A DNA stretch of 64,000 nucleotides from an uncultured Ignavibacteriales bacterium (GCA_964461265.1 CAYWTS010000001.1:161025-225024); one strand, 5' to 3'; shown: positions 5,410 through 32,506, counted from the stretch's first letter. Numbers and translations: made by a program. The notes: generated from the sequence alone by a model not told the origin.

Positions 5410-5554
<145 letters not shown>

Positions 5555-9888: not shown

Positions 9889-11715
9889 ATGTACGATTAC
9901 AGTTACTTTCTTCATACAAAGTGTGCAGAGAAATGGAAAAATATTGGTTTAAAGCGCCGCTCGGGTATTGTTGCACCGCTTTTTTCAATCTACTCTAAAC
10001 ATTCAGTTGGCATTGGTGAAATAACCGATTTAAAATTACTTATCGACTGGTGTAATAAAACCGGAATCAGTATAATTCAATTACTTCCTATAAACGACAC
10101 AGCACATTCTGCACCTTATTCGGCTCTCAGTACATTCGCAATCGACTCTATGTATATTTCACTAATCCGGTTAAGAGACGTAAATCTTAAGCAATTCAAA
10201 AACAAAATAAATACCCTTCGGAATAAATATAATTTAAAGGGCAAACGAGTTGATTATGCAATTAAAGATGAAAAATTAAAACTGCTTAAAAAAATTTTTA
10301 ACTTAACTGATTGGCGAAATAATAAATGCCTTAATGAATATATCCTGCAAAATTCATATTGGCTCAACGACTATTGTACATTCAGAATCATTTCTGATAA
10401 AATGGGAAGTAACTGGAATTTATGGGAAAAAGAGTATTCACCTCTTCTTTACATAGAAATTATACAAGAATATACTGAAGAATTTAATTTTCATTGCTGG
10501 GTGCAATGGCAGTTATTCGTACAGATGCAGGAAATAAAAAAATATGCCAATGAAAAGCGAGTACTTCTAATGGGTGACCTCCCTTTTCTTGTTTCAAAGG
10601 AGAGTGCTGACGTATGGTCACATCCTGAATACTTTAAACTTCAACTTTCTGCCGGGGCACCCCCCGATATGTATCATTCATCCGGACAAAAATGGGGAAC
10701 GCCGCCATATGACTGGAACAGAATTGCTGCAGATAATTTTGTATACTTAAGGAGAAAATTAAAATATGCCGAGAACTTTTATAATATGTACAGGATTGAC
10801 CACTTTGTGGGTTTATTCCGTTTATGGTCAGTATACGATAGTCCAAATTCACCGGCAAATGCGATAAACGGTTATTTTGACCCAGGGGATGAATGTTTAT
10901 GGGAAAAACATGGTAAAAAAATTCTAGACATAATGCTTGAATCAACCTCAATGCTTCCCTGCGCTGAAGACCTTGGTACCGTACCTGAATGCTCTTATAA
11001 AACACTTTTTGAATACGGTATAACGGGAATCGATTTCCAGCGTTACCAAAAGAGCAATTTCTGCTTTAAAAAAAACACCGAATACAGAATTAACTCGGTT
11101 TCGGTTCTTTCAACACACGATTCAACCCTGTTCTGTAACTGGTGGAATTACGAAGCCGGTGCAGTTGATGAAAAAATGTTCGGTATTTTATGTAAAGAGA
11201 AAAATATTACAGGAAAAAGATTTAATGAAATTAAATCCCAGCTATTTAACCTGAAGAAATCATTAAACGGCAGACTGAGATGGAATAATAAAATAGATTC
11301 TGTTGACAAGCTTAAATTGATATTAGGGCTCCACGAATACGAAGCACAAGAATTCATTCATGTTTATCTTGATACCTTTAATGAAAAAAACAAGTTTGCA
11401 GAGTTTCTAAATGGAAGCAGTAACGCCCCTAAAAGATGCACTCCCGCTTTTTTCAAAGATGTACTTATGAAAATAAATTCATCATCATCAATTTTTTCTA
11501 TTCAGTTAATACAAGAATATCTTTGCCTCGATGAAATATTGTTAAAACATATGAATAAATGGAGTTACCGTATAAATTTACCGGGTTCATCTGGTAAAAA
11601 GAATTGGTCTGTATTATTACCAGTTTCGCTAGATAGTTTATTAAAAAGTTATAGGGGTAAATTTATTACAGGAATGCTACGGGAGATTAATATATTTACC
11701 GACAGGTTCGTTTAA
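9889..11715 (+). CDS. malQ: 4-alpha-glucanotransferase (GH77)
   Basis: RRSGIVAPLFS, IQLLPIND, SPY-like APYSALS, MGDLPF, GAPPD, QKWGTPPYDW, YRIDHFVG, CAEDLG, STHD and RINLPG. Confidence 0.93.
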   Translation: MYDYSYFLHTKCAEKWKNIGLKRRSGIVAPLFSIYSKHSVGIGEITDLKLLIDWCNKTGISIIQLLPINDTAHSAPYSALSTFAIDSMYISLIRLRDVNLKQFKNKINTLRNKYNLKGKRVDYAIKDEKLKLLKKIFNLTDWRNNKCLNEYILQNSYWLNDYCTFRIISDKMGSNWNLWEKEYSPLLYIEIIQEYTEEFNFHCWVQWQLFVQMQEIKKYANEKRVLLMGDLPFLVSKESADVWSHPEYFKLQLSAGAPPDMYHSSGQKWGTPPYDWNRIAADNFVYLRRKLKYAENFYNMYRIDHFVGLFRLWSVYDSPNSPANAINGYFDPGDECLWEKHGKKILDIMLESTSMLPCAEDLGTVPECSYKTLFEYGITGIDFQRYQKSNFCFKKNTEYRINSVSVLSTHDSTLFCNWWNYEAGAVDEKMFGILCKEKNITGKRFNEIKSQLFNLKKSLNGRLRWNNKIDSVDKLKLILGLHEYEAQEFIHVYLDTFNEKNKFAEFLNGSSNAPKRCTPAFFKDVLMKINSSSSIFSIQLIQEYLCLDEILLKHMNKWSYRINLPGSSGKKNWSVLLPVSLDSLLKSYRGKFITGMLREINIFTDRFV

Positions 11716-12626
11716 TCCTCAGCAAGTAATTGTGCTCTGGCTTCCTTGAGCTTTTCTTCATAATCTTTGCTTAGCTTAGGGTATTTTAGGTTAAGGGAAT
11801 CAAGGGTACCCGCTATTATATCGCCAACAACCATTCGCATAAACCATTTTTTATCTGCAGGGATAATAAACCATGGAGCATATTCGGTTGATGTATTGTT
11901 AATTGCATCTTCATAAGCCTTCTGAAAATCATTCCAGAATTTCCGCTGATAAATATCTTCCATAGAAAATTTCCAGTTCTTATCTGCATCATCTATCCGT
12001 TTCAGAAACCTTCTTTTCTGTTCTTCTTTAGATACATGAAAGAAAAATTTTAAAATAATTGTACCGCTATCATTAATTGTTTTTTCGAACTGGTTGATAC
12101 TCTCATATCTTTTGTTCCAGAATTGAGTGGTAATGTCAGTAATTTCTTTTATACCGGGAATGTTCTGTTTTAAAATAAATTCAGGATGTACTTTAACGGC
12201 AGTTACTTCCTCATAATACGAGCGATTAAAAATTACTATCATTCCTTTTTCAGGTAAAGCTGCATAATGACGCCACAGGAAATCGTGTGCAAGCTCACGT
12301 GACGAAGGTTCAATAAAACTATATACTCTACACCCCTGGGGGTTTAAACCTGTCATAACATGTTTTATTGTTCCATCTTTACCGGCGGCATCCATCGCCT
12401 GAAATATTATGAGCAGCGAATAAGTTTTATCGGCATAAAACCTTTCCTGCAAATCCGATAATCTAGCTACATCGCTTTCCAGCAGCCGTTGAGCTTCCTC
12501 TTTAGAATGATAGCCCGCAGTATAACTTGTGTCGTAATCTTTAAGCTTTATTTTCATGCCTGGTTTAACCAGGAATTTTTTATTCAATCTGAAAAGGTTA
12601 TCTGTATTTTGAGAGTAATCTGTCAT
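11712..12626 (-). CDS. ppk2: Polyphosphate kinase 2 (class III-like)
   Basis: FQAMDAAGKDGTIKHV, FNRSYYEEV and WFIIPADKKW. Confidence 0.93.
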   Translation of the reverse strand: MTDYSQNTDNLFRLNKKFLVKPGMKIKLKDYDTSYTAGYHSKEEAQRLLESDVARLSDLQERFYADKTYSLLIIFQAMDAAGKDGTIKHVMTGLNPQGCRVYSFIEPSSRELAHDFLWRHYAALPEKGMIVIFNRSYYEEVTAVKVHPEFILKQNIPGIKEITDITTQFWNKRYESINQFEKTINDSGTIILKFFFHVSKEEQKRRFLKRIDDADKNWKFSMEDIYQRKFWNDFQKAYEDAINNTSTEYAPWFIIPADKKWFMRMVVGDIIAGTLDSLNLKYPKLSKDYEEKLKEARAQLLAED

Positions 12627-13989: not shown

Positions 13990-14994
13990 TTACTTAAAAA
14001 TCACTTCTTTCCCTGTTTTAGCAGATTTATACACTGCATCGGTAATTTTCAGACGTTCTAATGCTTCGTTACCGCTTGAAAGAAGATCTTTATTGTTCTG
14101 AATAGAATTAATAAAATGCCTGAGTTCATACTCATAGGAACGTTTATATATGTTTGAAGGATTTTCCATTTTTAAAGGTGTAACATTTACGAGCGAACCA
14201 TGCATCATTTTGTATATCCTTAAAGGATTTATACTGGCACTACCTTCTTTTCCAAAAACATTGCAATAAAATACATCATACTCTCTTAACAGAGACCAGC
14301 TGCATTCAAGGTTAATACAGGAACCGTTGACAAATTTAATAAATACATAAGAACAATCTTCAACTGTTTTAAACTGTATATTCTGATTTACAGCACTTAC
14401 ACTTTTTATTTTAGGATATTTCATCAATTGTAAGGCAATCTCAAGTATCACAACTCCAAGATCCATAAAAACACCACCGCCGGCAAGCTTTAAATCAAGC
14501 GCCCAATCTTCAAGTGTGCTGCGTTTTTTTATAAAGCCTGTTTTAATATAATAAATATCACCAAGCGAACCTGCAGATGCAAAGCTCTGCAGCATCATAA
14601 GGTCAGGTCGGAAAAGGCTGTTCATTCCTACCATTAACTTGCGTTTATATTTCTTTGCAGCTTCATATATTTCCGCACCTTCCTTATAATTTCTCGCAAG
14701 TGGTTTTTCTACAAGAATATTCATATCCTTTTCCAATGCTTTTAATGCATGATCCCTGTGCAGGTAAGTCGGTGATGCAATTATCAAAGCATCCGCTGGA
14801 CTTTCTTCCAGCATCTTATCTATATCATAATAATAACTTTTAACATTGAACTTTTTGGCAACATTTTTAGCTTTCGATTTATCAATATCACAAACCGCAG
14901 TTACTTCAACGTCATCCATGCGAGTTAACAGCGGTAAATGTGTGATTTGTCCAATCCCGCCTAAGCCTATAATATTTATTTTAATTTTATCCAT
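13990..14994 (-). CDS. Gfo/Idh/MocA family oxidoreductase
   Basis: GLGGIG Rossmann motif, ILVEKPLA and GGGVFMDLGV. Confidence 0.92.
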   Translation of the reverse strand: MDKIKINIIGLGGIGQITHLPLLTRMDDVEVTAVCDIDKSKAKNVAKKFNVKSYYYDIDKMLEESPADALIIASPTYLHRDHALKALEKDMNILVEKPLARNYKEGAEIYEAAKKYKRKLMVGMNSLFRPDLMMLQSFASAGSLGDIYYIKTGFIKKRSTLEDWALDLKLAGGGVFMDLGVVILEIALQLMKYPKIKSVSAVNQNIQFKTVEDCSYVFIKFVNGSCINLECSWSLLREYDVFYCNVFGKEGSASINPLRIYKMMHGSLVNVTPLKMENPSNIYKRSYEYELRHFINSIQNNKDLLSSGNEALERLKITDAVYKSAKTGKEVIFK

Positions 14995-15023
14995 ATAATT
15001 TCGTTATTTTTATTTATAAAAAT

Positions 15024-15117
15024 GTCAAGACACCCGGATCACACAGTTAACCTGCTTACCGCTGCTTTCTTTCGAACCTGACGGGGTTGGGCAAGTAAAT
15101 GTTGCCCGGGGCTTGAC
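15024..15117 (-). ncRNA. ffs: Signal recognition particle RNA (small bacterial SRP / 4.5S)
   Basis: Core GTCAGGTTCGAAAGAAAGCAGC (helix 8, GNRA loop) inside a long hairpin closed by gtcaag/cttgac. Confidence 0.92.
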
Positions 15118-15122
15118 AAAAC

Positions 15123-16472
15123 CTATTTCTTAAAAATCAATAATAATTTATTGTAACTAAAATTTAACGATTGTTTAAGAGTTAGATACACTCCCGTAAT
15201 GCCAATAATAATGTTAGCGAACCACATGCTTATAAACGGACTTACAAATTCTCTGTCTGCAAGCTTTTCGCCTCCAATTAAACAAGCCCAGTAAAGAAGA
15301 AAGAATCCAAGACTCATTCCTGCTGCAATACCGAAGCTTCCTTTACGTGTCATTACGCCCAGTGGTGCTCCAATCAGAACAAATACAATGCATGCGAATG
15401 GTATTGAATACTTTTTATAAATCTCAACAAGATACATATCTATTTGTTTCTGATCTGCAAGTTCTCGGCTTTTCATCCCTCTAATTTGCGAACTTATAAC
15501 TCTCAGTCTGTTGTATGCAGATTCGGCATTTTGCTGGTTTGTTTTCCTTAGTACATTATCAGAACGCAGCTTTATAGTATCGTACTCCAACCTTGTAAAA
15601 TCAATTGCTGTTTTGAGTATACTTTCCCTGAGCCTGTCTTTATCGAACTCCAGTAAACTCTTTATGTTTGTAACGATATTCCTCATTGAGTCCGCACTAA
15701 GCTCTCTATCGCCCCGTGACATTGAGCTTCTATCGGATTCTGAAAAACCAAACCCAACTGCATCTATCGTAACAATATGTTTTTCAAAAATCACTTTACG
15801 GTAATCGGAAAAGGTTTCTTTCTTATTCATTCTATGAATTTCACCATTATACAATTCCATTATGACCTTGCTAAAATCACTCGTAAAATTTATCGAACCT
15901 CTTTCGGCAGTAAGTAGGCTTGAAAATATAGGATTAGAATTATCGATTATTAAAATGCCTTCAAGCTCGTTCGAGCCCGGAAACGTTTTTCTCACCATAA
16001 TGTTATAACCGCTTATATCATCAGAAAATCTACCTGGTTCGAGCACAAAAGTAGGTTTAGTTCTCTGAATATCGGTCATCAATACCTTTGTCCTGTGATT
16101 AGCTTCGGGAAGTACTTTGTTATTGAATAAGATTAGCCCGTAACATACAATGCCCGATACTATTAAAACTGGCATCATCATCCTGTGAAGACTGATACCG
16201 TTGGCTTTCATAATCGTTATCTCGTTTGTGGATGTCAAAGAACCAAAAGCCATTAAAACTGCAACCAGGGTTGCCATAGGCACAGCAAGTGTAACCATCC
16301 AAGCCATATTAAGTGATATCAGTTGCGCAATAACCCACCAGCTCAATCCCTTGCCAACAAGATTATCAATAAAACGCATAATAAACTGGAACGTAAATAC
16401 AAAAATAACAATAACGAACGACAGAATAAATGGCGCAATATGTGCTCTTAATATGTAAGAATAAATTTTCAA
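15123..16472 (-). CDS. LptF/LptG family LPS export permease
   Basis: N-terminal TM helices, EITIMKANGISL, a periplasmic beta-jellyroll region and KKYSIPFAC...GAPLG. TTG start. Confidence 0.93.
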   Translation of the reverse strand: MKIYSYILRAHIAPFILSFVIVIFVFTFQFIMRFIDNLVGKGLSWWVIAQLISLNMAWMVTLAVPMATLVAVLMAFGSLTSTNEITIMKANGISLHRMMMPVLIVSGIVCYGLILFNNKVLPEANHRTKVLMTDIQRTKPTFVLEPGRFSDDISGYNIMVRKTFPGSNELEGILIIDNSNPIFSSLLTAERGSINFTSDFSKVIMELYNGEIHRMNKKETFSDYRKVIFEKHIVTIDAVGFGFSESDRSSMSRGDRELSADSMRNIVTNIKSLLEFDKDRLRESILKTAIDFTRLEYDTIKLRSDNVLRKTNQQNAESAYNRLRVISSQIRGMKSRELADQKQIDMYLVEIYKKYSIPFACIVFVLIGAPLGVMTRKGSFGIAAGMSLGFFLLYWACLIGGEKLADREFVSPFISMWFANIIIGITGVYLTLKQSLNFSYNKLLLIFKK

Positions 16473-16806
16473 GATTTAAGAAACAAAACAATATCTTTAC
16501 ATATGCCTTACAATATTATCATTTTGTTTATTAATAAAAAGTGTATTTAGAAACTCTGAATTACTATTTTATGAAACCTAATGCTACTTATAAATTATAC
16601 AGCACAAGGGAATTAAAGACAAAAAATTGTTTTAATTAACTATACTCTGTTAATTTAATATAAAATAATCCAAATTTTAAAAAAACAATCCAGAGCAGTT
16701 GGGAAACTCAGTAAGGGGTTACATATTTGTATTATAAACTTATATTAAATATTTAGCTTCATCGGAGCGTCTCAACTTTATAGCATAATCACAACTTACG
16801 GTACAG

Positions 16807-16898
16807 ATTCCCGCCCACGAGTCATTTGACATGTTGAGTTGTGGACTTCCGATTGTCTTTGTCGAATCCGTCAACTGAGGAAGCACACAGAGGGGAAT
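16807..16898. repeat. Composite nested palindrome: ATTCCC...GGGAAT enclosing two internal hairpins
   Basis: attcccgc ... aggggaat encloses ccac...gtgg and cttcc...ggaag, and contains tccgtcaactgagga. Confidence 0.45.
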
Positions 16899-16911
16899 AG
16901 TTTGTGTAACA

Positions 16912-18108
16912 TCATTTAATAATACAAAGTTCTTTTCCTATTTTTCTGAAAGCTTCTATAGCTTTATCCAAGTGTTCTTTAGTATGTGAAGCTGAAATCT
17001 GGACTCTTATCCTTGCCTGACCTTGCGGTACGACAGGATAATAAAAACCAATTACATAAATTCCTTCATTTAGTAATTTTTCTGCAAAATTCTTGGAAAG
17101 CTTAGCATCATATAGCATAATTGGAACAATCGGGTGAATACCATCTTTAATATCGAAACCAGCTTCTTTCATGTGTATTCTGAAATACTTTGTGTTTTCT
17201 TCCAGCTTATCTCTTAGCTCAGTAGTAGATGAAAGCATATCAAAAACAGCAATGGATGCACCCACAACAGCCGGTGTAAGAGAGTTAGAGAATAAATAAG
17301 GCCGCGAACGCTGTCTGAGCATTTCAATAATTTCCTTTTTGCCTGTAGTATAACCACCCATTGCTCCACCTAAAGCTTTGCCAAGTGTCCCTGTTATAAT
17401 ATCAACTTTACCAAGGAGCCCGTGATATTCAGCTGCACCTCTGCCCGTTTTGCCTATTAAACCTGCTGCATGGCATTCATCAACCATTAAGTTTGCTCTA
17501 TATTCTTTTGCTATCTTATGAATCTCATCGAGTTTTGCAATGTCACCATCCATCGAAAATACTCCGTCAGTGCATATCAGCTTATTCTTTTTACCTTCGG
17601 AAACCGCTTCATCAAGCTTTCGAATTAATCCCGACATGTCTGAATGCCTGTAACGGTAACGTGTAGCCTTGCTTAACCTTATACCGTCTATAATACTTGC
17701 ATGGTTTAATTCATCTGAAATAACAGCATCTGTATCGTGCAGCAGCGGTTCAAAAACTCCTCCGTTTGCATCAAAACATGCAGCATATAGAATTGAGTCT
17801 TCTGTTCTATGAAATTCCGCAATCTTTTTTTCAAGCTCTTTATGAATATCGAGTGTTCCGCAGATAAAACGAACTGATGACATACCAAAACCGTATTTCA
17901 TGAGAGCATTTTTTGCTGCTTCTAAAACTTTAGGATGTGAAGAAAGGCCAAGGTAGTTATTGGCACAGAAATTCATTACTTTTCTCCCGTCTATAAGATG
18001 TATCTCTGGACCTTGGGGTGAAGTAATCACCCTTTCATTTTTATATAATCCGGATAATTTAATCCTGTGAAGTTCTCCTTTCAGTTTTGCAATTAGTTGT
18101 GAAGCCAT
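16912..18108 (-). CDS. kbl: Glycine C-acetyltransferase (2-amino-3-ketobutyrate CoA ligase), canonical type
   Basis: FCANNYLGLSSHP, SVRFICGT, DELNHASIIDG, DECHA, GTLGKALGG and RSRPYLFSN. Confidence 0.95.
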   Translation of the reverse strand: MASQLIAKLKGELHRIKLSGLYKNERVITSPQGPEIHLIDGRKVMNFCANNYLGLSSHPKVLEAAKNALMKYGFGMSSVRFICGTLDIHKELEKKIAEFHRTEDSILYAACFDANGGVFEPLLHDTDAVISDELNHASIIDGIRLSKATRYRYRHSDMSGLIRKLDEAVSEGKKNKLICTDGVFSMDGDIAKLDEIHKIAKEYRANLMVDECHAAGLIGKTGRGAAEYHGLLGKVDIITGTLGKALGGAMGGYTTGKKEIIEMLRQRSRPYLFSNSLTPAVVGASIAVFDMLSSTTELRDKLEENTKYFRIHMKEAGFDIKDGIHPIVPIMLYDAKLSKNFAEKLLNEGIYVIGFYYPVVPQGQARIRVQISASHTKEHLDKAIEAFRKIGKELCIIK

Positions 18109-18185
18109 AACTTACTCCGTATTAAAAATTTGACAAAAATAGCAAAAACAATTGATAATTAGTAATGTGTATTTTAACATAAATC

Positions 18186-18211
18186 AAAAACCCCGATTCG
18201 TTCGGGGTTTT
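18186..18211. terminator. Intrinsic terminator after the fasciclin gene
   Basis: aaaaa ccccga ttcgt tcgggg tttt. Confidence 0.8.
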
Positions 18212-18236
18212 AATAAAAGTAATATTTTAGTATTAA

Positions 18237-18797
18237 TTATTTCGCAGAAGGCAACACTACCTCATCAATTACATGTACAATTCCGTTAGATCCTCTTATG
18301 GAAGCTAATATTTTTGCTTTATCAATGTAGGTTACACCATCTTTTTTTGTGATTTTTGCCGGATTGCCATCGAACATATTAATAGTTTGACCATCAGAAA
18401 GCATATCAATAGTATAAACTGAAACCTGTACGTGATGCTGCAAAATAGAAGTTAATTTACTTTTGTTTTCAGGTTTCAACAAGTCATCAAGTGTTCCTTT
18501 TGGGAGTTTATCGAATGCAGCATTTGTAGGTGCAAAAACTGTAAAAGGTCCCGGATTCGCAAGCGGTTCAACAAGTTCTGCTGCTTTTAAAGCAGTTACA
18601 AGTGTTGTATGGTCTGATGAACCAACAGCAATTTTCACGATATCCTTATCCGATACATCATCCTTTACATTCGATTGACCGCTTTCGGTTTTTTCATTTT
18701 GTTTTGTGGTTTTATCGGATGTCTTATTAACATCATCCTGTTTCCCGCAGCTTGCGAATAGTAAAAAAAGACCGGTTAGAAGAATTAAAGCTTTCAA
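18237..18797 (-). CDS. Fasciclin (FAS1) domain lipoprotein
   Basis: Lipobox FASC, GPFTVFAPTNAAF and SNGIVHVIDEV. TTG start with a GGAGG Shine-Dalgarno. Confidence 0.93.
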   Translation of the reverse strand: MKALILLTGLFLLFASCGKQDDVNKTSDKTTKQNEKTESGQSNVKDDVSDKDIVKIAVGSSDHTTLVTALKAAELVEPLANPGPFTVFAPTNAAFDKLPKGTLDDLLKPENKSKLTSILQHHVQVSVYTIDMLSDGQTINMFDGNPAKITKKDGVTYIDKAKILASIRGSNGIVHVIDEVVLPSAK

Positions 18798-18843
18798 AAT
18801 AGACCTCCTGTTAAAATGTTTGTATGTAAATTATTTTTGAATC

Positions 18844-18893
18844 TATGTTAAATTAACATACAAATTATATTTATCAATTGACTTAAGTCAATT
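18844..18893. promoter_or_regulatory. Two adjacent perfect palindromes upstream of the fasciclin gene; the second is CRP/FNR-box-like
   Basis: tatgttaaattaacata at 18844-18860 and aattgacttaagtcaatt at 18876-18893 (TTGAC-N4-GTCAA). Confidence 0.5.
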
Positions 18894-18900
18894 TTATAAA

Positions 18901-18925
18901 AAAAAGCGGGTGAACAATCACCCGC
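18901..18925 (-). terminator. Intrinsic terminator after the second kbl homologue
   Basis: On the minus strand: gcgggtga ttgt tcacccgc followed by a T-run. Confidence 0.8.
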
Positions 18926-19009
18926 AATTAATTATTTTATTATGCACACCTCTAGAATTATCAAATCTCACAAATTCATAAGATTCGGAAAATTTAGAAG
19001 ATTTAAAAA

Positions 19010-20257
19010 TTATTGTCCGTATCTATCAATAATTTCCTGCTTTGTTTTATGAAGAATATCATATTTCTTACCCACTTTCACAAATGCATCAAGTGCTTTT
19101 TCAAGGTGGTGCATATCGTGTGCAGCCGAGAGCTGTGTCCGTATCCTTGCCTGCCCTTTTGCTACTACAGGGAAAAAGAAGCCGACAGCATAAATACCTT
19201 CAGCGTATAAATCACGTGCGAAATCCTGCGAAAGCTTTGCATTGAAAAGCATGACTGGAACTATGGGTGTTTCGCCTTCTTTAATAATGATACCGGCATC
19301 GGTAAGTGATTTACGCCAGAACTGTGTATTGCATTCAAGCTTATCCCTGCGTTCGGTTGTTTGAAAAATGATATTCAGCACCGCTAATGCACCTGCAACA
19401 ACAACCGGCGGCACAGTATTAGAGAACAAATAAGGCCGTGCTTTCTGCCTGCACATCTCAACAAGCTCACGCCTGCCTGAAACACATCCGCCAGATGCTC
19501 CACCGAGTGCTTTGCCAAGTGTTGTTGTGATTATATCTATTTTACCGAATACTCCGCAATGTTCATGTGTTCCCCTGCCGGTTTTGCCGATAAATCCAGA
19601 TGCGTGAGAATCATCTACAAACACCATAGCATTGTATTTATCTGCAAGTTCAACAATTTTATCAAGTTTAGCCAAATCACCATCCATAGAAAATGCACCA
19701 TCTGTAATCACCATTCTCACACGCTTATCTTTATGAAGGTGAAGCTTTTGCTCAAGATGAGCCATGTCGGAATGTTTATAAGTATCCTGCTGTGCTTTGC
19801 ATAACCTCATACCGTCAACAATAGACGCATGAACAAGCCTATCGGCAATCATTACATCCTTTTCTGATAAAATAGCTTCGAAAACACCGGCATTGGCATC
19901 CATACATGATGGGAAAAGTATAGTATCCTCGGTACCAAGGAATTCTGTAAGCTTTTTTTCAAGTTCCTTATGAATATCCTGTGTTCCGCAGATAAACCTA
20001 ACCGAAGACATCCCGTATCCGCGAGCTTCTAAACCTTCATGTGCTGCTTTTATTACATCAGGGTGAGATGAAAGTCCAAGGTAATTATTAGCGCACATGT
20101 TTATAACCTTTTTCTTATCCGAACCAATAGGGAATTCAACTTCGATATCCGAGCTTTGAGGTGAACAAATAGCTCTTTCTTCTTTAAAAATACCGGCTAA
20201 ACGGAGATTTTCTAACTCCCCGGTATATATTTGCCTTAATTCTGCTGTATATGACAT
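19010..20257 (-). CDS. Second, divergent Kbl-type alpha-oxoamine synthase (PLP), encoded with a carrier protein
   Basis: MCANNYLGLSSHP, SVRFICGTQ, DRLVHASIVDG, DDSHA, TTLGKALGG and KARPYLFSN, plus N-terminal loop and C-terminal extensions relative to kbl. Confidence 0.9.
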   Translation of the reverse strand: MSYTAELRQIYTGELENLRLAGIFKEERAICSPQSSDIEVEFPIGSDKKKVINMCANNYLGLSSHPDVIKAAHEGLEARGYGMSSVRFICGTQDIHKELEKKLTEFLGTEDTILFPSCMDANAGVFEAILSEKDVMIADRLVHASIVDGMRLCKAQQDTYKHSDMAHLEQKLHLHKDKRVRMVITDGAFSMDGDLAKLDKIVELADKYNAMVFVDDSHASGFIGKTGRGTHEHCGVFGKIDIITTTLGKALGGASGGCVSGRRELVEMCRQKARPYLFSNTVPPVVVAGALAVLNIIFQTTERRDKLECNTQFWRKSLTDAGIIIKEGETPIVPVMLFNAKLSQDFARDLYAEGIYAVGFFFPVVAKGQARIRTQLSAAHDMHHLEKALDAFVKVGKKYDILHKTKQEIIDRYGQ

Positions 20258-20403
20258 AATTTATTATCTCCCTTCCCGCAATAGCGGATAAAATCCGGTG
20301 GGGATCTACATTTAAATTAGTAAAAGTATTTAGATTAAACGATAAAGTGAAAAATGTGAAGTGACTCTGCTAATATGAAATTTTAGAAATATTATTTTAG
20401 CAG

Positions 20404-20423
20404 ATTCCTGTTTCCGCAGGAAT
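20404..20423. repeat. dRS3-like palindrome variant ATTCCT-N8-AGGAAT
   Basis: attcctgtttccgcaggaat, 9 nt beyond the ACP stop codon. Confidence 0.7.
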
Positions 20424-20432
20424 TATTCTAAT

Positions 20433-20684
20433 CTAACTCACATTAAACTCTTTTAACAGTTTAACTATGTTATTCACACTGTCAAATGCTTCGGGTGATG
20501 CTTTGGCATCAGGTATCTGGATACCATATTTTGTTTCCAGGAAAACCTTAAGCGAAACCATCGAAAAAGAATCAACAATACCGCCGGAAATTAATGGTGT
20601 ATCGTAGGTAACTTCCCTGTCATCACCTTCTTCGAGGTATTCGTTTCTTACATATTCAAGAACTACATCTTTAATATTTTCCAT
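20433..20684 (-). CDS. Stand-alone acyl/aminoacyl carrier protein
   Basis: 83 aa, acidic, with the phosphopantetheine motif GIVDSFSMV and ending FDSVNNIV. Confidence 0.9.
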   Translation of the reverse strand: MENIKDVVLEYVRNEYLEEGDDREVTYDTPLISGGIVDSFSMVSLKVFLETKYGIQIPDAKASPEAFDSVNNIVKLLKEFNVS

Positions 20685-20772
20685 ATTATAAAAATTTAAT
20701 GATTATAATTGTTTTACACAAGAGGTTTTTTCAAAGAAATCCCTTCTGGACAGAACTTTAATGAGATTTATG

Positions 20773-22491
20773 TTATAAGTCATTTTCCAGAGTGGAAATA
20801 TCTCCTATATCCGTTCCCCATTCCTTAGCGCGGAGCACACGCCTCATTATTTTCCCGCTGCGTGTTTTTGGCAAAGAATCCAGAAACTCAATTTCCTGCG
20901 GCATAGCTAAAGCCGAAAGTTTCTTCCTTACAAAATTCATAATTTCAAGCTCAAGCATTTTCGATTTTGTATAACCGGGTTTTAGTGCAATAAATGCTTT
21001 CACAACCTCCATATTAACCTGATCGGGTTTACCGACTGCTGCTGATTCAGCGACAGCAGGATGCTCAAGCAAAGCTGATTCTATCTCAAATGGTCCCACC
21101 AGGTGACCGGCAGTATTTATCACATCATCATCACGTCCAACAAACCAATAATAACCATCCTCATCTATCGAAGCTCTGTCACCGCATAAGTACCAGCCAT
21201 TTGCAAATTTTTTATCGTAAGTTTCCTTATTATTCCAGTAAGCTCTCATCATCGAAGGCCAGCCGGGTTTGAGTGCTATCATCCCCACAACGCCTCTTTT
21301 TTCTAAAGGGAGGTGAGTTTTTAAATCGACAACATTTGCAGTAATTCCCGGAAAAGCTTTACCCATTGAACCCGGTTTAATTTTCATACCTGGGTAGTTG
21401 CTGATAACAATGCTTCCGGTTTCCGTCTGCCAGTAAGTGTCGTGAAACGGCAGACCGAATACTTCTTCCGACCAAATTACAGCTTCTGCATTCAAAGGTT
21501 CACCTACACTTGCCAAATGACGAAGTGATGATAAGTCATATTTACGCACAATTTCTTTTCCTTCTTTCATCAATGCCCTTATTGCAGTTGGTGCCGAATA
21601 CCAAACCGTAATTTTATGCTTTTCGATGAACCGATACCAGTTCTCTGCTGTAAATCCTGAATCAAGAACACATTGTGTAATTCCGTTTGACCATGGCCCT
21701 ATTATTCCGTAAGAAGTGCCGGTTACCCATCCCGGATCAGCAGTACACCAGTATACGTCATTCTCTCTCAGGTCAAGCACATATTTTGCTGAAATATATT
21801 GTGCTATTAAAGAGTAATGCACATGTTGTGCACCTTTAGGTTTTCCTGTAGTTCCGGAAGTATAGTGCAGAACGGAAGGAGTTTCAGCCTTAGCAGGATA
21901 TATGTTGAAATTCTCAATTTTTTCAAGTTTATCAAGATGAAATACTATTTCTTTATCGCGTAAAGGTTTACTGCCATCGTCATCTATAATAATTATATAT
22001 TTCATAAAAGGCATATCTTTGAGAATATTCCGAACCTTTGGTAAGTGTTTCTTCTGTGTTAATATTGCTGAAGTTTTTGCATCATCAAGTCTTGTAAAGA
22101 GTGATTCTGAACCGAATGCAGAATATAATGGCTGAACTATGCCTCCCATTTTCAATACACCGAGAAATCCAAAATATAATTCAGGAACCTTATCCATAAA
22201 CAAACATATTCTCTCACCCGGTCTTAATCCGAGATCATTAAGATACTTTGCAATTCCATTGGTTAATATTCGGGCATCGTTGAAAGTGTACTTTTTAACA
22301 TTCCCTTGGTGGTCTTCCCATATGAGTGCCGGTTTATCAGCATGTCCAAGTCTGCAAATCCTATCTGTACAGAATACACCGATATTTATTACATCACCAT
22401 CTTTATATCCGAGTTCTTTCTTAGAAATATCCCATGAAAAATCGTTATAAATTTCATCATACGGTTTCATGTTATATGTATAGTTAAACAT
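20773..22491 (-). CDS. Acetate--CoA ligase-like adenylate-forming enzyme (short-chain type)
   Basis: YTSGTTGKPKG, WCTADPGWVTG, SVGEPLN, DTYWQTETG, GRDDDVIN and PKTRSGKIMRR. Confidence 0.92.
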   Translation of the reverse strand: MFNYTYNMKPYDEIYNDFSWDISKKELGYKDGDVINIGVFCTDRICRLGHADKPALIWEDHQGNVKKYTFNDARILTNGIAKYLNDLGLRPGERICLFMDKVPELYFGFLGVLKMGGIVQPLYSAFGSESLFTRLDDAKTSAILTQKKHLPKVRNILKDMPFMKYIIIIDDDGSKPLRDKEIVFHLDKLEKIENFNIYPAKAETPSVLHYTSGTTGKPKGAQHVHYSLIAQYISAKYVLDLRENDVYWCTADPGWVTGTSYGIIGPWSNGITQCVLDSGFTAENWYRFIEKHKITVWYSAPTAIRALMKEGKEIVRKYDLSSLRHLASVGEPLNAEAVIWSEEVFGLPFHDTYWQTETGSIVISNYPGMKIKPGSMGKAFPGITANVVDLKTHLPLEKRGVVGMIALKPGWPSMMRAYWNNKETYDKKFANGWYLCGDRASIDEDGYYWFVGRDDDVINTAGHLVGPFEIESALLEHPAVAESAAVGKPDQVNMEVVKAFIALKPGYTKSKMLELEIMNFVRKKLSALAMPQEIEFLDSLPKTRSGKIMRRVLRAKEWGTDIGDISTLENDL

Positions 22492-22804
22492 TAATTAACT
22501 CCTGTTTGACAAAATATAAGGTTTGTTATTTAGATATGTTAATTGTAAGTACTTATAATTATTCCTGACAAAAAAGTAAAAATCTTTCACCACACAAAAT
22601 TATTAAAAATGATAAAAAATCATTCATATCATAAACAAAAATAAGACGCAGAACAGGTTAAAAACTATGATTTATATCAGGTTTAAAAGATGTATTTATC
22701 AGGAATTTAGAGAAATTATATTGTATAAATGCAGGAATCTATCTTGTAATGTGCAGATACCCTAATAAAAAGACAAAAAAGGGCGTTTTAAAATTGTTTT
22801 ATAA

Positions 22805-22954
22805 CCACAGACTTTATGCCTGTCTAACCACGACTCTTTCGAACCTTTGACTGGAGTTGCAGGCAGGTCTGCGTTGCAATTTTCTTGCATACTCGTCCTG
22901 CTAACAGGAAGGTTAAAGATTTTAAGCAAGAAAATTGCCTTATGAGACAGCCAC
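22805..22954 (-). ncRNA. Candidate structured RNA: SRP-RNA-like long hairpin preceded by a 13-bp stem domain
   Basis: Shares tctttcgaacc (22835-22845) and flanking blocks with ffs (15068-15078). Stems are gcagac/gtctgt and tgcctg/caggca, with a GAAA tetraloop. gcaattttcttgc (22876-22888) pairs perfectly with 22926-22938. Confidence 0.55.
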
Positions 22955-22977
22955 TTTTAAAAATGATACGCTAATTC

Positions 22978-23415
22978 TCAGTTTCCGGCTTCACCAACGT
23001 TTAACTCTGTAACATTTACCTGCTGTTGTGAAGACATTGTGCACCTGCCATTGAAGGTGCAGCCCTCTTCGGTAATTATGTTCACTACATTTATATCACC
23101 GTTAACCGAAGAACCCTTTTTCAGGTCAAGCCTGTGAGCTTCGATGTTACCGCTTATTGTGCCATAAACGACGACCTCGGATGAGCAGACATTTCCTTCG
23201 ACCTTCCCCTTAACGCCGATAATAATTCCGCTTTCACCCGTTAGGTCGCCTTTTATGGTTCCGTCAATTCTCGTAAAGGTGGGAATGTAAAAATTTCCTT
23301 CAACCTTACACCCTTCGCCAATAAGTGTTTGAACATCCCTAGAAGAAGACTTTGATACAATTGGTGTGTGAGAATGTGTTTCTATTTCTCTGCTTTTTTC
23401 TTTTCCACCAAACAT
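22978..23415 (-). CDS. Bactofilin (polymer-forming cytoskeletal protein)
   Basis: TLIGEG.KVEGN...RIDGTIKGD...VVVYGTISGNI...V.GDI....EEGCTFNG. Confidence 0.93.
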   Translation of the reverse strand: MFGGKEKSREIETHSHTPIVSKSSSRDVQTLIGEGCKVEGNFYIPTFTRIDGTIKGDLTGESGIIIGVKGKVEGNVCSSEVVVYGTISGNIEAHRLDLKKGSSVNGDINVVNIITEEGCTFNGRCTMSSQQQVNVTELNVGEAGN

Positions 23416-30304: not shown

Positions 30305-32506
30305 CTACGGGATATCCACACCTATCCCGTAGCATTCATACTTTACATCTTTCGGATTTCGCCATTCGGAATTATTTTTCCATATTGTTGACTGAGTTTC
30401 TATATTATTATTATAATCATAATTAAAGTAATTATCTTCACCGCCCGTATCAATAAACATTCCGAAACTCTTAGCATGAGAGTTAAAAGGTAAAATATAC
30501 TCTTCACGAACATCTGATGAACCCATGCCTATTTCATTTTCAGGCAATTTATAAGTATCGTTACCTCCGATTTCTATGAAAAAAGCATTAGACCTTATTT
30601 CTGATGAACCGATAGCAATTTTTTTGGCTTCGTAAAAATCATTACCTCCGGAATTATACAGCAAAGCAATTACATAATCCCATCCAAAAGCTAAACCCGC
30701 ACCTGCCCAGCCATACCCGGCTACAGTTTTCGGGTCACCCCATAACACATATTTATCATTACCGCCATCGTCTATCATTGTGCCTACAGCATAATGAGCT
30801 CCCGAAGCCTGGGTAAAATAACAGCTGCTGTAAGTATCATTTCCCCTGCCATCGTAAAGGAATCCCATTCCAAGCCAGTAACCAACGCCCATGTTCCAAT
30901 TACCCGCATAATATGAATCATCTCCTGTTAAATCTATCAAAAATCCAATTCCACCTCCATAGCAATGCCCGTCTGTCATATCAGCACGCCTGCCCCATCC
31001 TGCACCCATGGAGCAATTAGCAATTATATCACCACCCGAGTGATAATCACCCGGTAAACCAGATTTGCTTGCATATGGTTCTGAATAATAACTATCATTC
31101 CCCGCAGCGTCAGCAAGAACACCCACCCCGCCAAATGCACCGTATCCCTCACCTTCACTCGATAGACTGTATTTATCGTTGCCGGATGCATCAGCAAGCA
31201 TTCCTATACCGTTATATGAGGCACCAATACCTCTTAAACGGCAGTAATACGAATCATCACCATTCAAATCGAATAATGCAGAAAAACCCATATCACTCCA
31301 TCCCAGACTTTCCTGCTCGGTATCATAAATATCATCACCATTTACATCACAAAGCAAGCTGACACCAAAGGAAGATGAACAAATCTTTTCATCCTTACCG
31401 CTTTTAAAAATATCATTACCTTTAAAATCGATATAAAGACTTACCATCTGTTTATTGTTTGTAACTGCTGCATTATTATATACATCATTTCCACCCCATT
31501 CTAATAAAAATAAGACATTTTCTTTTTGTTTATATGTGTCGTTATTTTTAGAACCCATTATAAAAAGTCCAAATGGTGTGTACAGTTTTAGTGTTTTTTC
31601 TGAAGGTCTTATGCTGTCTTTGTTATTAGTCAGCAGGTTAATAATGTTACCGCTAAGCTCTGATGTTTTCAAAGCAGTATACCATAATGATGCCATATCG
31701 AAGCCACCTGCTTCTGAAAGAATCCTCTCCCTTATCCGCAGGTATTCCTCAGACTCGAACCTGTCAATACTGTTTTTTGGAAAATTAAAGTATCTGTCTA
31801 ATACATTCTTATCAGAAAACTGATATGCCCTTAATGCCTGTTCGTTAGCAAGTGCAAGGTTAAGCAGAATATATGAATAAAATCGCTGTTCAAAACTATT
31901 TAATTTTTTTGCAAATGTTCTCCACTCAGCTTTAGCTTCTTTCCAGCTTTGTTTTGCCTCAGATGAATTAAGCAGATTATATTTTATACTTATTTTTTCT
32001 GTTTTTTCGAGAGCATATTCAACAGGAGATTTCAATATTGAAGTATCTGAATTAGTTTCCCATCCACGTTTTTCTTTGGGAAACCATCTGTCGTCAAGAT
32101 TAGCGCCATAAGACCTGAATCCTGAATAAATCCTATCGATTCCGAGACTATGTGATATCTTATAAATTGCCTGTGGATTGTTTATGATAGTATCAGGAAT
32201 AAGCCATCTTTCAACACGTGATGCTGCCTGCCTTACATAGGTATATATTTTATCAGGTTCTGAAAATAAATCATTAAAAACAGGGAGCGTGTATAATAAT
32301 TGGTTATGATGGGGATAAGTCATCCAGTATGATTTCGGATTATAACCCAGGTCGCTGCGGTTTTTACCAAGTATAGAAAGAACATTATCTATTGGCGCAG
32401 CATCATAAAGCGTATATGAGATATTATTTACTATTTTATCATTATTTTGAGAAAACGTAAAACTATCAAAGTTAAATAAGATTATTATTAATAAAAGATA
32501 CTTCAT
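30305..32506 (-). CDS. Secreted hypothetical protein with about 12 hhDxxG(N/D)DxY repeats
   Basis: Signal peptide ending FTFSQ. Repeats include LCDVNGDDIY, FDLNGDDSY, ADASGNDKY, IDLTGDDSY and IDDGGNDKY. Confidence 0.85.
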   Translation of the reverse strand: MKYLLLIIILFNFDSFTFSQNNDKIVNNISYTLYDAAPIDNVLSILGKNRSDLGYNPKSYWMTYPHHNQLLYTLPVFNDLFSEPDKIYTYVRQAASRVERWLIPDTIINNPQAIYKISHSLGIDRIYSGFRSYGANLDDRWFPKEKRGWETNSDTSILKSPVEYALEKTEKISIKYNLLNSSEAKQSWKEAKAEWRTFAKKLNSFEQRFYSYILLNLALANEQALRAYQFSDKNVLDRYFNFPKNSIDRFESEEYLRIRERILSEAGGFDMASLWYTALKTSELSGNIINLLTNNKDSIRPSEKTLKLYTPFGLFIMGSKNNDTYKQKENVLFLLEWGGNDVYNNAAVTNNKQMVSLYIDFKGNDIFKSGKDEKICSSSFGVSLLCDVNGDDIYDTEQESLGWSDMGFSALFDLNGDDSYYCRLRGIGASYNGIGMLADASGNDKYSLSSEGEGYGAFGGVGVLADAAGNDSYYSEPYASKSGLPGDYHSGGDIIANCSMGAGWGRRADMTDGHCYGGGIGFLIDLTGDDSYYAGNWNMGVGYWLGMGFLYDGRGNDTYSSCYFTQASGAHYAVGTMIDDGGNDKYVLWGDPKTVAGYGWAGAGLAFGWDYVIALLYNSGGNDFYEAKKIAIGSSEIRSNAFFIEIGGNDTYKLPENEIGMGSSDVREEYILPFNSHAKSFGMFIDTGGEDNYFNYDYNNNIETQSTIWKNNSEWRNPKDVKYECYGIGVDIP

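Follow-up and report, generated by a model that had tools for sequence, protein, structure and literature searches.

A carrier gene between a ligase gene and a second kbl gene

What is the function of a small carrier protein whose gene lies between a gene resembling those of acetyl-CoA synthetases (ACSs) and a gene for a second glycine C-acetyltransferase (Kbl) paralog? The window analyzed here is a stretch of 64,000 nucleotides from an uncultured Ignavibacteriales bacterium (GCA_964461265.1 CAYWTS010000001.1:161025-225024). It was found that the three ORFs are co-oriented on the minus strand exactly at the coordinates given in an earlier sequence-only reading of this DNA. The motifs quoted there are also present: DTYWQTE at residues 351-357 of the ligase, GIVDS at residues 35-39 of the carrier, and DRLVH at residues 139-143 of the Kbl paralog (Kbl2). 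The features are listed below, with positions counted from the first nucleotide of the window.

22513-22571, minus strand: an overlapping pair of sigma-70-like candidate promoters 5' of the ligase start, recognized by consensus match alone
20773-22491, minus strand: ACS-like adenylating ligase, 572 aa, with Pfam AMP-binding and AMP-binding_C domains; proposed acetate:[carrier protein] ligase
20433-20684, minus strand: stand-alone carrier protein, 83 aa, with a predicted phosphopantetheine site at Ser39 (20568-20570)
20258-20432, minus strand: carrier-Kbl2 spacer, 175 nt, unusually long compared with the median of 11 nt in relatives
19010-20257, minus strand: Kbl2, a glycine C-acetyltransferase paralog, 415 aa, Pfam Aminotran_1_2, with the PLP lysine K249 (19511-19513); putative acetyl-carrier-dependent glycine C-acetyltransferase, as judged from its sequence
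18906-18925, minus strand: terminator-like hairpin with T8 just 3' of Kbl2 (GCGGGTGATTGTTCACCCGC then TTTTTTTT)
16912-18108, minus strand: canonical Kbl (Kbl1), 398 aa, TIGR01822 score 666.8 bits; a separate transcription unit here

The ligase and carrier genes are separated by 88 nt, and the carrier and Kbl2 genes by 175 nt. As had been claimed, there is no clear terminator between the three genes but a terminator-like site after the last; the hairpin at 18925..18906 (an 8-bp stem with 6 GC pairs, followed by T8) is the sole good intergenic site of this kind on the minus strand. The two promoter matches, TTGTCA-18-TACAAT and TTAACA-18-TATATT, agree with the consensus at 10 of 12 positions each. 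Since the region has just as many sigma-70-like sites as expected by chance, the promoter evidence is weak.

Conservation and neighborhood of the trio

Is this arrangement common in other bacteria? The carrier is encoded in at least 588 stretches of a collection with one genome per species, and 81 loci were analyzed. Kbl2 follows the carrier in 79 of the 81 loci; the median gap is 11 nt, and in 63 loci the gap does not exceed 30 nt. The ligase gene precedes the carrier gene in 72 of the 81, with a median gap of 52 nt, while in some loci it lies up to 7 kb from the carrier-Kbl2 pair or no ligase gene turned up within 8 kb. Among the hosts are Ignavibacteria, Aminicenantes/Acidobacteriota, Zixibacteria, Calditrichia, KSB1, Fibrobacteres, and Gemmatimonadetes, and the host GC content ranges from 31 to 71%. 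The recurrence of the trio in nearly all of these related loci is far above chance, and the suggestion that it is a conserved unit was borne out by this survey in several phyla. In summary, three genes that databases would annotate as plain acetyl-CoA synthetase, acyl carrier protein, and glycine C-acetyltransferase make up an uncharacterized unit, which has stayed intact in hundreds of bacterial species of many phyla.

In 36 of the 81 loci, a canonical kbl gene lies no more than 8 kb from the carrier gene, downstream of Kbl2 in all but one of them. Thus, Kbl2 is not a replacement for the canonical Kbl. A tdh gene often adjoins the trio as well, and three loci (L082-L084) have a co-oriented tdh-ligase-carrier-kbl2-kbl array. 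Since no metabolic genes other than canonical kbl and tdh recur beside the trio, the threonine-glycine node is indicated, and the pyrazine or signal product imagined in the sequence-only reading found no support. Nor was an additional phosphopantetheinyl transferase (PPTase) or dehydrogenase gene conserved in the neighborhoods surveyed; phosphopantetheinylation of the carrier is a prediction. In L082, an ilvD-ilvBN-ilvC cluster lies immediately downstream.

A proposed reaction on a private carrier

The most likely role of the trio is to join acetate and glycine by way of a private carrier in place of coenzyme A (CoA), a reading to which I assign a probability of about 0.55 from the sequence comparisons described below. 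The three gene products would form a small thiotemplated unit that works alongside the CoA pool but separately from it. First, the ACS-derived ligase would adenylate acetate and transfer the acetyl group onto the phosphopantetheine thiol of the carrier, not onto CoA. Second, Kbl2 would catalyze the PLP-dependent Claisen condensation usual for Kbl, here of the acetyl-S-carrier with glycine, yielding 2-amino-3-ketobutyrate and free holo-carrier. Third, going by the neighboring genes, 2-amino-3-ketobutyrate might enter the Tdh/Kbl node, to be converted to L-threonine by threonine dehydrogenase or decarboxylated to aminoacetone. By analogy with thiolase, the Kbl condensation without decarboxylation should be uphill, and thus the direction of the trio is uncertain. 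Re-acetylation at the expense of ATP (to AMP and PPi) could keep a private carrier at a very high ratio of acetyl to free thiol, which may push a non-decarboxylative condensation that would be unfavorable with the shared acetyl-CoA/CoA pool. If true, this would be a concrete case in which a carrier protein makes a thioester reaction independent of the acetyl-CoA/CoA ratio of the cell.

By analogy, the closest precedent is the AasR/AcpR/serine palmitoyltransferase (SPT) system of Caulobacter and other Rhodobacteria. There, the ANL ligase AasR, annotated as an acyl-CoA synthetase, acylates AcpR only, SPT prefers acyl-AcpR to acyl-CoA, and the three genes co-occur (PMC9386255). Thus, the logic of a ligase, a dedicated ACP, and an alpha-oxoamine synthase, which the sequence-only reading had invoked, is experimentally established (PMC9386255), and the trio has the same three kinds of genes. 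The proteins are not orthologous, however, and the trio belongs to FCB-group and Acidobacteriota hosts. While the known system joins a long-chain fatty acid to serine with decarboxylation to give a sphingolipid precursor, the trio has an ACS-derived ligase with a closed acetate pocket including Trp, and its synthase, as a duplicate of Kbl, would use glycine and not decarboxylate. If the proposed reading is true, the use of a private ACP to feed an alpha-oxoamine synthase, so far demonstrated in sphingolipid synthesis, would extend to the C2 chemistry of central amino-acid metabolism.

A broader version of the proposal is doubtful. In this version, a family of acetate:[carrier protein] ligases has split from acetyl-CoA synthetase, and the acetyl-S-carrier is a second acetyl currency spent by both Kbl2 and MBOAT proteins. 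An ATP-powered reversal of the Kbl/Tdh route would then lead from acetate and glycine via 2-amino-3-ketobutyrate to threonine, 2-oxobutyrate, and isoleucine, while the MBOAT partners would receive acetyl groups for polysaccharide O-acetylation. The ilv cluster downstream of the trio in L082 is of note for the isoleucine branch. If true, an unrecognized route of amino-acid synthesis or acetate assimilation would be hidden under routine annotations and be widespread in uncultured anaerobic lineages of the FCB group and Acidobacteriota.

Coenzyme A or the carrier?

Are the ligase and Kbl2 ordinary enzymes? The ligase could be a plain acetyl-CoA synthetase, Kbl2 a second acetyl-CoA-dependent Kbl, and the carrier a passenger or a component of another pathway. 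Both enzymes score above NCBIfam equivalog cut-offs (ligase, NF003313 for acetate--CoA ligase, 764.7 bits versus 729; Kbl2, TIGR01822 for Kbl, 579 versus 493) and hence may have plain CoA-dependent activities, although the ligase is below the cut-off of TIGR02188 (499 versus 725). An ACS and Kbl pair is metabolically sensible, and all catalytic and pocket residues are conserved. The top PDB match of the ligase (547 bits) is 9g79, a 572-aa acetyl-CoA synthetase, and the short-type AMP-forming ACS represented by Bacillus subtilis AcsA (9g79) shares with it the length, 46% identity, the acetate pocket, and the catalytic Lys (Lys609 in Acs; SGK/SGKIMRR in the ligase). Moreover, the equivalent of Acs Arg584, which contacts the 3'-phosphate of CoA, is retained (FVRKKLS).

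In contrast to AcsA, the ligase is linked to a carrier gene and has three substitutions. Leu464 (21100-21102) occupies the position of the ACS-conserved A8 Arg (Arg526 in Se, Arg528 in Mt), and the residue is Leu in 57 of 57 carrier-linked homologs. This Arg is present in all three ACS structures aligned, while it is also missing in many true acyl-CoA ligases outside the ACS family; its loss, as read from the alignment, is a mark of divergence from ACS and not proof of carrier use. In addition, N493-M494 stands for [KR]-G, and D stands for V in GRVDD. All these changes are invariant and lie in the C-terminal domain, which forms the thioester site. In Acs, Arg526/528 is highly conserved and stabilizes the state in which the thioester with CoA is formed; when it was replaced, kcat fell 130-326-fold or saturation by CoA was lost (PMC10455477). 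If the proposed reading is right, Leu for the A8 Arg together with N-M for [KR]-G would be a testable marker of an acceptor switch from CoA to a carrier in the ACS family.

Kbl2 has likewise diverged. It matches Escherichia coli Kbl (1fc4) with 460 bits, has identical catalytic residues, and is 55% identical to Kbl1. Nevertheless, it belongs to a separate clade of 62 members, whose mean identity is 81% within the clade and 53% to E. coli Kbl. Clade-specific residues are R140, V/I142, T245, T330, and N339, where Kbl has A/S/Q, N, S/G, H, and D. Asn135, His325, and Asp334 (E. coli numbering) are found in 33 of 33 canonical Kbls, and V/I142, T330, and N339 stand for them in Kbl2. A carrier gene always precedes Kbl2, and E. 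coli kbl has none before it.

Ordinary enzymes are thus hard to reconcile with a carrier gene that typically lies 7-12 nt upstream of Kbl2 in most of the 79 loci across phyla, with pairwise identities of ligase, carrier, and Kbl2 that co-vary (r = 0.58-0.75), and with a carrier family that is confined to the trio and one sister context. They also leave the invariant clade-specific substitutions of both enzymes at otherwise conserved positions, and the presence of a canonical Kbl, to be explained. I regard this alternative as unlikely. If the trio does work on its carrier, the names acetate--CoA ligase and glycine C-acetyltransferase, as given by annotation pipelines, would be wrong for these proteins in hundreds of species, and metabolic reconstructions of Ignavibacteria, Aminicenantes, Zixibacteria, and their relatives would miscount them as ACS and Kbl.

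A sister arrangement and the direction of the trio

The sister context is a ligase-carrier-MBOAT arrangement in a polysaccharide cluster, where the same ligase subfamily and the same carrier family are encoded beside an MBOAT protein bearing a C-terminal FxYxxF shuttle motif. The sister ligase is 59% identical to the window ligase versus 45% to B. subtilis AcsA, and both its pocket and its Leu signature are those of the window ligase. The MBOAT protein DltB is known to take its acyl group from a carrier protein (PMC12148441). The gene order copies DltA-DltC-DltB, in which a stand-alone adenylating enzyme also charges a small carrier, structurally of the same kind; DltA, however, activates D-alanine and is not ACS-like, and the window has no MBOAT gene, the acceptor enzyme being a cytoplasmic PLP enzyme. 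Thus, the sister system suggests that ligases of this subfamily charge the carrier and run in the activating direction, and this comparison of sequences and gene orders supports carrier loading by the window ligase. If the reading is right, some bacterial O-acetylation systems may draw on an acetyl-carrier and not on acetyl-CoA.

Does the trio run in the catabolic direction instead? Tdh would convert threonine to 2-amino-3-ketobutyrate, Kbl2 and the holo-carrier would cleave it to glycine and acetyl-S-carrier, and the reversed ligase would convert acetyl-carrier, AMP, and PPi to acetate and ATP, saving the thioester energy, while the canonical Kbl would provide biosynthetic acetyl-CoA. The tdh and canonical kbl neighbors and the arrays of L082-L084 fit this scheme, as do the favorable direction expected of thiolytic cleavage and the hosts, mostly anaerobic fermenters going by their labels. 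In Syntrophus aciditrophicus, an AMP-forming ACS reportedly runs in reverse. The catabolic scheme is nonetheless improbable: the sister system, with the same ligase signature, can work only in the activating direction, a stoichiometric protein cofactor is unusual in a high-flux catabolic route, and nothing points to a supply of PPi.

Acetate and glycine as substrates

Which substrates would be joined? The sequence-only reading had pointed to a short-chain pocket in the ligase. The acetate-activating residues are indeed kept: the equivalents of Val310, Thr311, Val386, and Trp414 of Salmonella enterica Acs are found in GWVTG, SVGEPLN, and DTYWQTE, the last of which aligns to the Trp414 region. 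In Kbl2, K249, H143, D215, H218, S190, T246, R373, N57/58, and the FSN motif are invariant in all 62 members. The segment SSVRFICGT, which I take from the alignment to ALAS to hold the glycine- and acyl-pocket positions, is also the same as in Kbl in all 62.

Another product is conceivable. A longer, BioF-like acyl-carrier, propionate or glycolate, or alanine or serine in place of glycine would lead to a different aminoketone, which could be a precursor of a cofactor, a lipid head group, or a signal. E. coli BioF (8-amino-7-oxononanoate synthase) is an alpha-oxoamine synthase that accepts an acyl-ACP, pimeloyl-ACP, and shares the ADRLxH motif with Kbl2, although its acyl chain is C7, its amino acid alanine, and its carrier the housekeeping AcpP. 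The clade-specific changes of Kbl2 adjoin the PLP-stacking His and also fall in the 325-334 segment, and the carrier resembles those of secondary metabolism. Against these points stand the ligase pocket, which including the Trp is the same as in acetate-specific Acs, and the unchanged SSVRFICGT segment. Besides, Kbl2 is below the cut-off of the bioF model (TIGR00858; 360 bits versus 426) and far below those of the SPT models (225-316 versus 500-670), and the neighbors are kbl and tdh, with no bio or lipid genes nearby. Substrates other than acetate and glycine are distinctly improbable. The sequence-only reading had suggested that the Arg of DRLVH (R140) could help the acidic carrier to dock. 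All members of the Kbl2 clade have this Arg, and canonical Kbls vary at the position. Kbl2 is not the more basic of the two paralogs (pI 6.7 versus 8.9 for Kbl1).

The carrier protein

The carrier is acidic (pI 4.3) and falls below the gathering threshold of Pfam PP-binding (PF00550; 16.5 bits versus 20.8, E = 0.01). Its best NCBIfam matches, all under the cut-offs, are the OlsHI ACP, AmcB, and DltC; the PDB sequence matches are the Bmp1 carrier, PltL, and DltC. In an AF2 model (pLDDT 83), helix II spans residues 39-53, starting at Ser39, and Foldseek aligned the model with PigG, PltL, the Bmp1 carrier, DltC, and AcpP at a TM score of 0.8. G35, D38, and S39 are invariant across the family. The modeled fold is that of a true carrier, and of the kind that stand-alone adenylating enzymes load. 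These matches agree with the earlier assignment to the stand-alone peptidyl or D-alanyl type and not to the AcpP type of fatty acid synthases. Comparable to the ACP bound to cysteine desulfurase complexes, the carrier could instead serve Kbl2 as a regulatory or structural subunit, reporting acyl or acetyl status without carrying the substrate. This would fit the tight spacing, which resembles translational coupling, and the very high conservation (67-88% identity across phyla), but is very improbable since it explains neither the co-conserved ligase with an altered thioester-forming domain nor the sister system with MBOAT.

The spacer between the carrier and Kbl2 genes

The 175-nt spacer of the window folds no better than shuffled sequences (z = -1.46), and an Rfam search of it gave no match. 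It has two hairpins, neither with a T-run; the hairpin ATTCCTG-CGGAAA-CAGGAAT lies at 20404-20423. In other genomes, a PDDEXK_3 gene is inserted at the same place, at the carrier-Kbl2 junction.

The ligase-carrier-Kbl2 unit

The sequence-only reading had placed three co-oriented genes at 19010-22491 of the window, with a terminator after the last gene and no clear one between them. ORFs were found at exactly these positions on the minus strand, and the only convincing non-coding terminator-like structure on this strand lies directly 3′ of the third gene. The intergenic gaps are 88 nt (ligase-carrier) and 175 nt (carrier-Kbl2).

Features of the trio and the canonical Kbl in the window
20773-22491, minus: ligase ORF, 572 aa
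20433-20684, minus: carrier ORF, 83 aa
19010-20257, minus: PLP enzyme (Kbl2) ORF, 415 aa
18925..18906, minus: terminator-like structure
16912-18108, minus: Kbl1, canonical Kbl, beyond a fasciclin-domain lipoprotein gene; 55% identical to Kbl2

Is this trio conserved in other genomes? The carrier core peptide was scanned against one genome per species (GTDB), and carrier relatives were found to be encoded in at least 588 stretches. The host labels of the best 80 of these (at least 588) include Ignavibacteria, Kapaibacterium, Aminicenantes and other Acidobacteriota including Thermoanaerobaculaceae, as well as Zixibacteria, Calditrichia, KSB1, Fibrobacteraceae, and Gemmatimonadales; a few bins are probably mislabelled. 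ORFs were called in 81 loci, including one obtained before the scan, and compared with the window proteins. The kbl2 gene lies directly 3′ of the carrier gene in 79 of the 81 loci, with a median gap of 11 nt (at most 30 nt in 63 loci), and the ligase gene lies upstream of the carrier gene in 72/81 loci, with a median gap of 52 nt. Where this order is not seen, the contig ends, an N-run intervenes, or a long-read assembly has frameshifts. In some loci of Aminicenantes and Ignavibacteria, the ligase gene is several kilobases away or absent within 8 kb. Thus, the carrier-Kbl2 pair is the tightest link. Compared with the window proteins, the ligases are 61-83% identical, the carriers 67-88%, and the Kbl2 proteins 73-87%, and across the loci, the three proteins correlate in their pairwise identities (r = 0.58-0.75). 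The GC content of the host loci ranges from 31 to 71%, that of the window being about 35%. Judged by its relatives, the window stems from an Ignavibacteria-like bacterium. Even the genes of remoter carrier relatives (53-66% identity) are again flanked by ligase and kbl2 genes. The neighbourhood survey proposed in the sequence-only reading has thus revealed a widespread and strongly conserved unit.

The carrier matches include no fusion of the carrier with the ligase or with Kbl2. Three long matches (P0128, P0155, and P0161) turned out to be frameshifted translations of GC-rich DNA. The carrier-hydrolase fusions P0150 and P0225 belong to a more distant family and were not accepted as Rosetta-stone evidence. 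Local rearrangements include a second ligase copy in tandem (L026:4430-6154; 63% identical to the window ligase), an extra carrier gene upstream of the ligase gene (L080:3616-3861), and several copies of ligase C-terminal fragments lying between the carrier gene and a ligase gene that has been displaced (L048:2906-3083 and 6925-7096).

Spacers and signals

Most carrier-Kbl2 junctions measure 7-12 nt, versus 175 nt in the window. A PDDEXK_3 gene is inserted at this junction in one locus (L001:10445-10864) and, according to ORF clustering, likewise in five others. Insertions seem to recur at this junction, and the spacer of the window (20258-20432) may be an insertion remnant. Two small hairpins that lack a T-run, one of them at 20404-20423, are present in this spacer, which folds no better than shuffled sequence. 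A riboswitch or leader RNA at the trio was rejected on the basis of Rfam searches, which gave only tRNA and SRP RNA at the gathering score in the whole window and no relevant match at E <= 1 in 16400-23100. The putative promoter is overlapped by a palindrome (22540-22561), which was dropped because it is not kept upstream of the ligase genes of the relatives. Upstream of the ligase gene, a gap of 486 nt contains a 16-nt inverted repeat (22876-22938; 94% complementary, 31-nt loop) just after a bactofilin gene. Beside it, the element GGTTCGAAAG resembles a tRNA T-arm, and neither a tRNA nor an Rfam family was called there. A look-up for expression and co-transcription found the window sequence in two freshwater DNA metagenome runs only and in no RNA run.

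The ligase

The ligase has both domains of the ANL superfamily and scores above the curated cut-off of the acetate-CoA ligase model NF003313 of NCBIfam (764.7 versus 729). Its top solved relative is a 572-aa acetyl-CoA synthetase (ACS; 9g79, 547 bits). Alignment with 9g79, 8rpk, and Salmonella enterica Acs revealed a complete acetate pocket composed of Val310 and Thr311 (GWVTG), Val386 (SVGEPLN), and Trp414 (DTYWQTE). Thus, the short-chain pocket Trp noticed at first is kept together with all the other pocket residues. The catalytic lysine (SGKIMRR) and the equivalent of Arg584 are also retained.

The A8-loop Arg (SG[HE]R[LV]G; Arg526 in S. enterica and Arg528 in Methanothermobacter thermautotrophicus) is replaced by Leu464, and this Leu is present in 57/57 carrier-linked ligase homologues. 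The Arg was called highly conserved in a mutational study, in which its Lys and Gln variants had a 130- to 326-fold lower kcat and its Ala variant lost CoA saturation (PMC10455477). Two further replacements, Asn493-Met494 for the [KR]-Gly of ACS and Asp454 for the Val of GRVDD, are as invariant as Leu464 in the carrier-linked homologues, and all three lie within the C-terminal domain. The C-terminal domain of such ligases rotates to build the thioester-forming site.

The carrier protein

Public annotation of the carrier is just "acyl carrier protein" or "hypothetical protein". It falls below the Pfam PP-binding threshold (E = 0.01) and matches a series of NCBIfam carrier models, none above its cut-off. 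The top model is the OlsHI ornithine-lipid ACP (64.6 bits versus a cut-off of 130), followed by AmcB and DltC. The OlsH/OlsI identity was rejected on this score and because no GH3-like or OlsI gene is nearby. Among solved structures, its nearest relatives are the carrier domain of Bmp1, a peptidyl carrier, PltL, and DltC. In the AlphaFold2 model (pLDDT 83), the long second helix begins at Ser39, and superposition on PigG, PltL, the Bmp1 carrier, CcbZ, and DltC gave a TM of about 0.8. The 83-aa protein is a genuine carrier protein despite the missed Pfam threshold; the solved relatives and the superposition also bear out the initial impression that it is nearer to D-alanyl and peptidyl carriers than to AcpP.

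Kbl2

Kbl2 scores 579 with the glycine C-acetyltransferase model, whose cut-off is 493, and aligns over its full length with Escherichia coli Kbl (460 bits). Its identification as serine palmitoyltransferase (SPT), cysteate acyltransferase, ALAS, or BioF was rejected because of the profile scores. Across the loci, Kbl-like proteins split into a Kbl2 clade (62 members; mean within-clade identity 81%; 53% identity to E. coli Kbl) and canonical Kbl groups (59% identity to E. coli Kbl). The PLP lysine, the stacking His, the Asp/His, Ser, and Thr residues, the carboxylate-binding Arg, the NN and FSN motifs, and the SSVRFICGT segment are invariant in both. The differences are as follows.

Residues distinguishing canonical Kbl (E. 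coli numbering where given) from Kbl2
Asn135: Val/Ile142 in Kbl2
His325: Thr330 in Kbl2
Asp334: Asn339 in Kbl2
Ser/Gly240: Thr245 in Kbl2
Ala, Ser, or Gln (variable): Arg140 in Kbl2 (invariant)

BioF accepts acyl-ACP. The ADRLxH motif of Kbl2 is also present in E. coli BioF (1bs0 residues 128-133). By their sequence signatures, the ligase and Kbl2 are distinct subfamilies.

A sister system with an MBOAT

At 41-53% identity, the remotest carriers of the family have the same kind of ligase gene before them and a different gene after them. In the related loci L088 and L089, a 579-aa ligase is followed by an 83-aa carrier and a 491-aa MBOAT (PF03062), and then by ATP-grasp, glycosyltransferase (GT2 and GT1), PGA_cap, and polysaccharide-deacetylase genes. 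The triplet lies at the head of polysaccharide clusters as listed here.

Ligase-carrier-MBOAT loci
L089:562-4086
L088:714-2463
L085:3-1083
L087:3-1253

The sister ligase of L088/L089 is 59% identical to the window ligase and 45% to Bacillus subtilis AcsA, and has the same acetate pocket and GHLV and NME signatures as the window ligase. The C-terminus of the sister MBOAT, DFIYFQF, fits FxYxxF, the acyl-shuttle motif of bacterial MBOATs (PMC12148441). Since the acyl donor of DltB is the carrier DltC (PMC12148441), the triplet looks like a Dlt-type system with an acetate-type ligase and would deliver acetyl and not D-alanyl. PatA, a known acetyl-MBOAT, uses acetyl-CoA (PMC12148441). The sister system offers independent comparative evidence that this ligase subfamily may acylate this carrier family, in the activating direction.

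Metabolic neighbours

Clustering of all ORFs of the 81 loci revealed canonical Kbl and threonine-3-dehydrogenase (Tdh) as the only recurrent metabolic neighbours. A canonical kbl gene is near the trio in 36/81 loci, mostly directly downstream of kbl2; Kbl2 is not a replacement for Kbl. A Tdh-like Zn-dehydrogenase was found in eight loci at 45% identity or more, and a looser cluster has 13 members. Beyond Tdh, no conserved PPTase, dehydrogenase, thioesterase, or reductase partner was found in these loci. The extra dehydrogenase or PPTase that the sequence-only reading had thought of is thus not a conserved part of these loci. The recurrent kbl and tdh neighbours therefore place the unit at the threonine/glycine/2-amino-3-ketobutyrate node. 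In L082-L084, co-oriented tdh, ligase, carrier, kbl2, and kbl genes, in this order, are followed by ilvD, ilvB, ilvN, and ilvC (L082:4955-16264), an array that hints at a tie to threonine/isoleucine metabolism. In a single case, a glyoxalase-family gene lies directly 3′ of kbl2 (L090:1839-2231). Aminoacetone from 2-amino-3-ketobutyrate can yield methylglyoxal.

Proposed reaction and its alternatives

In the most likely mechanism, as far as sequence and gene context can tell, the ligase would make acetyl-AMP and pass the acetyl group to the holo-carrier. Kbl2 would then condense acetyl-S-carrier with glycine into 2-amino-3-ketobutyrate by the normal Kbl reaction, giving a product that Tdh could reduce to threonine or that could decarboxylate to aminoacetone. 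With a private carrier, the acetylation state could be pushed far from the cellular acetyl-CoA/CoA ratio by the conversion of ATP to AMP and PPi, and condensation without decarboxylation would require this push. Carrier use is proposed because of the linkage, the subfamily signatures, and the sister system; acetate and glycine are the proposed substrates because the pocket residues are unchanged; and the product fate because of the neighbours only.

Four main rivals were considered. The same unit may run in the catabolic direction, recovering ATP; the kbl and tdh neighbours would suit this direction too, and the sister system speaks for activation. The trio may consist of an ordinary ACS and an ordinary Kbl with the carrier as a bystander. 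The retained Arg584 equivalent and the scores of both enzymes above the equivalog thresholds keep such a reading in play, and the evidence for carrier use stands against it. The unit may act on other substrates, for which the unchanged pockets give little reason. A purely regulatory carrier would leave the carrier-linked signatures of the ligase unexplained.

The closest characterised system to the proposed acetyl-carrier route is AasR/AcpR/SPT, in which an enzyme annotated as acyl-CoA synthetase acylates a dedicated ACP only and SPT, an alpha-oxoamine synthase, prefers the acyl-AcpR made by AasR (PMC9386255). The trio has the same logic, but the proteins, chain length, amino acid, decarboxylation, and taxa all differ. 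Full-text searches, with most subscription journals outside their coverage so that absence is no proof, gave no published description of the ligase-carrier-Kbl2 combination. The routine names of the trio enzymes are confident yet probably wrong, masking the unit.

Other features of the region

Downstream of the trio, the gene order canonical Kbl, LptF/LptG permease, and GFO/IDH/MocA oxidoreductase is kept within Ignavibacteria (window 13990-18108, L001, L003, L005, L014, L017, L026, and L060). The canonical Kbl at this position is of two types, 398 aa (window, L021, and L026) and about 420 aa (most others), which are ~58% identical. The window also encodes a 733-aa predicted secreted protein, repetitive and Gly/Asp-rich, with no Pfam match at E <= 1e-5 (30305-32506). 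A Ppx/GppA phosphatase (2510-3472) and a polyphosphate kinase 2 (11712-12626) are polyphosphate-linked nucleotide-recycling enzymes without a link to the trio; they could be relevant to a ligase that releases AMP and PPi. A bacterial small SRP RNA (15020-15118; 68.5 bits) lies between the GFO/IDH/MocA oxidoreductase and LptF/LptG genes, and the window also has a tRNA (5410-5482).
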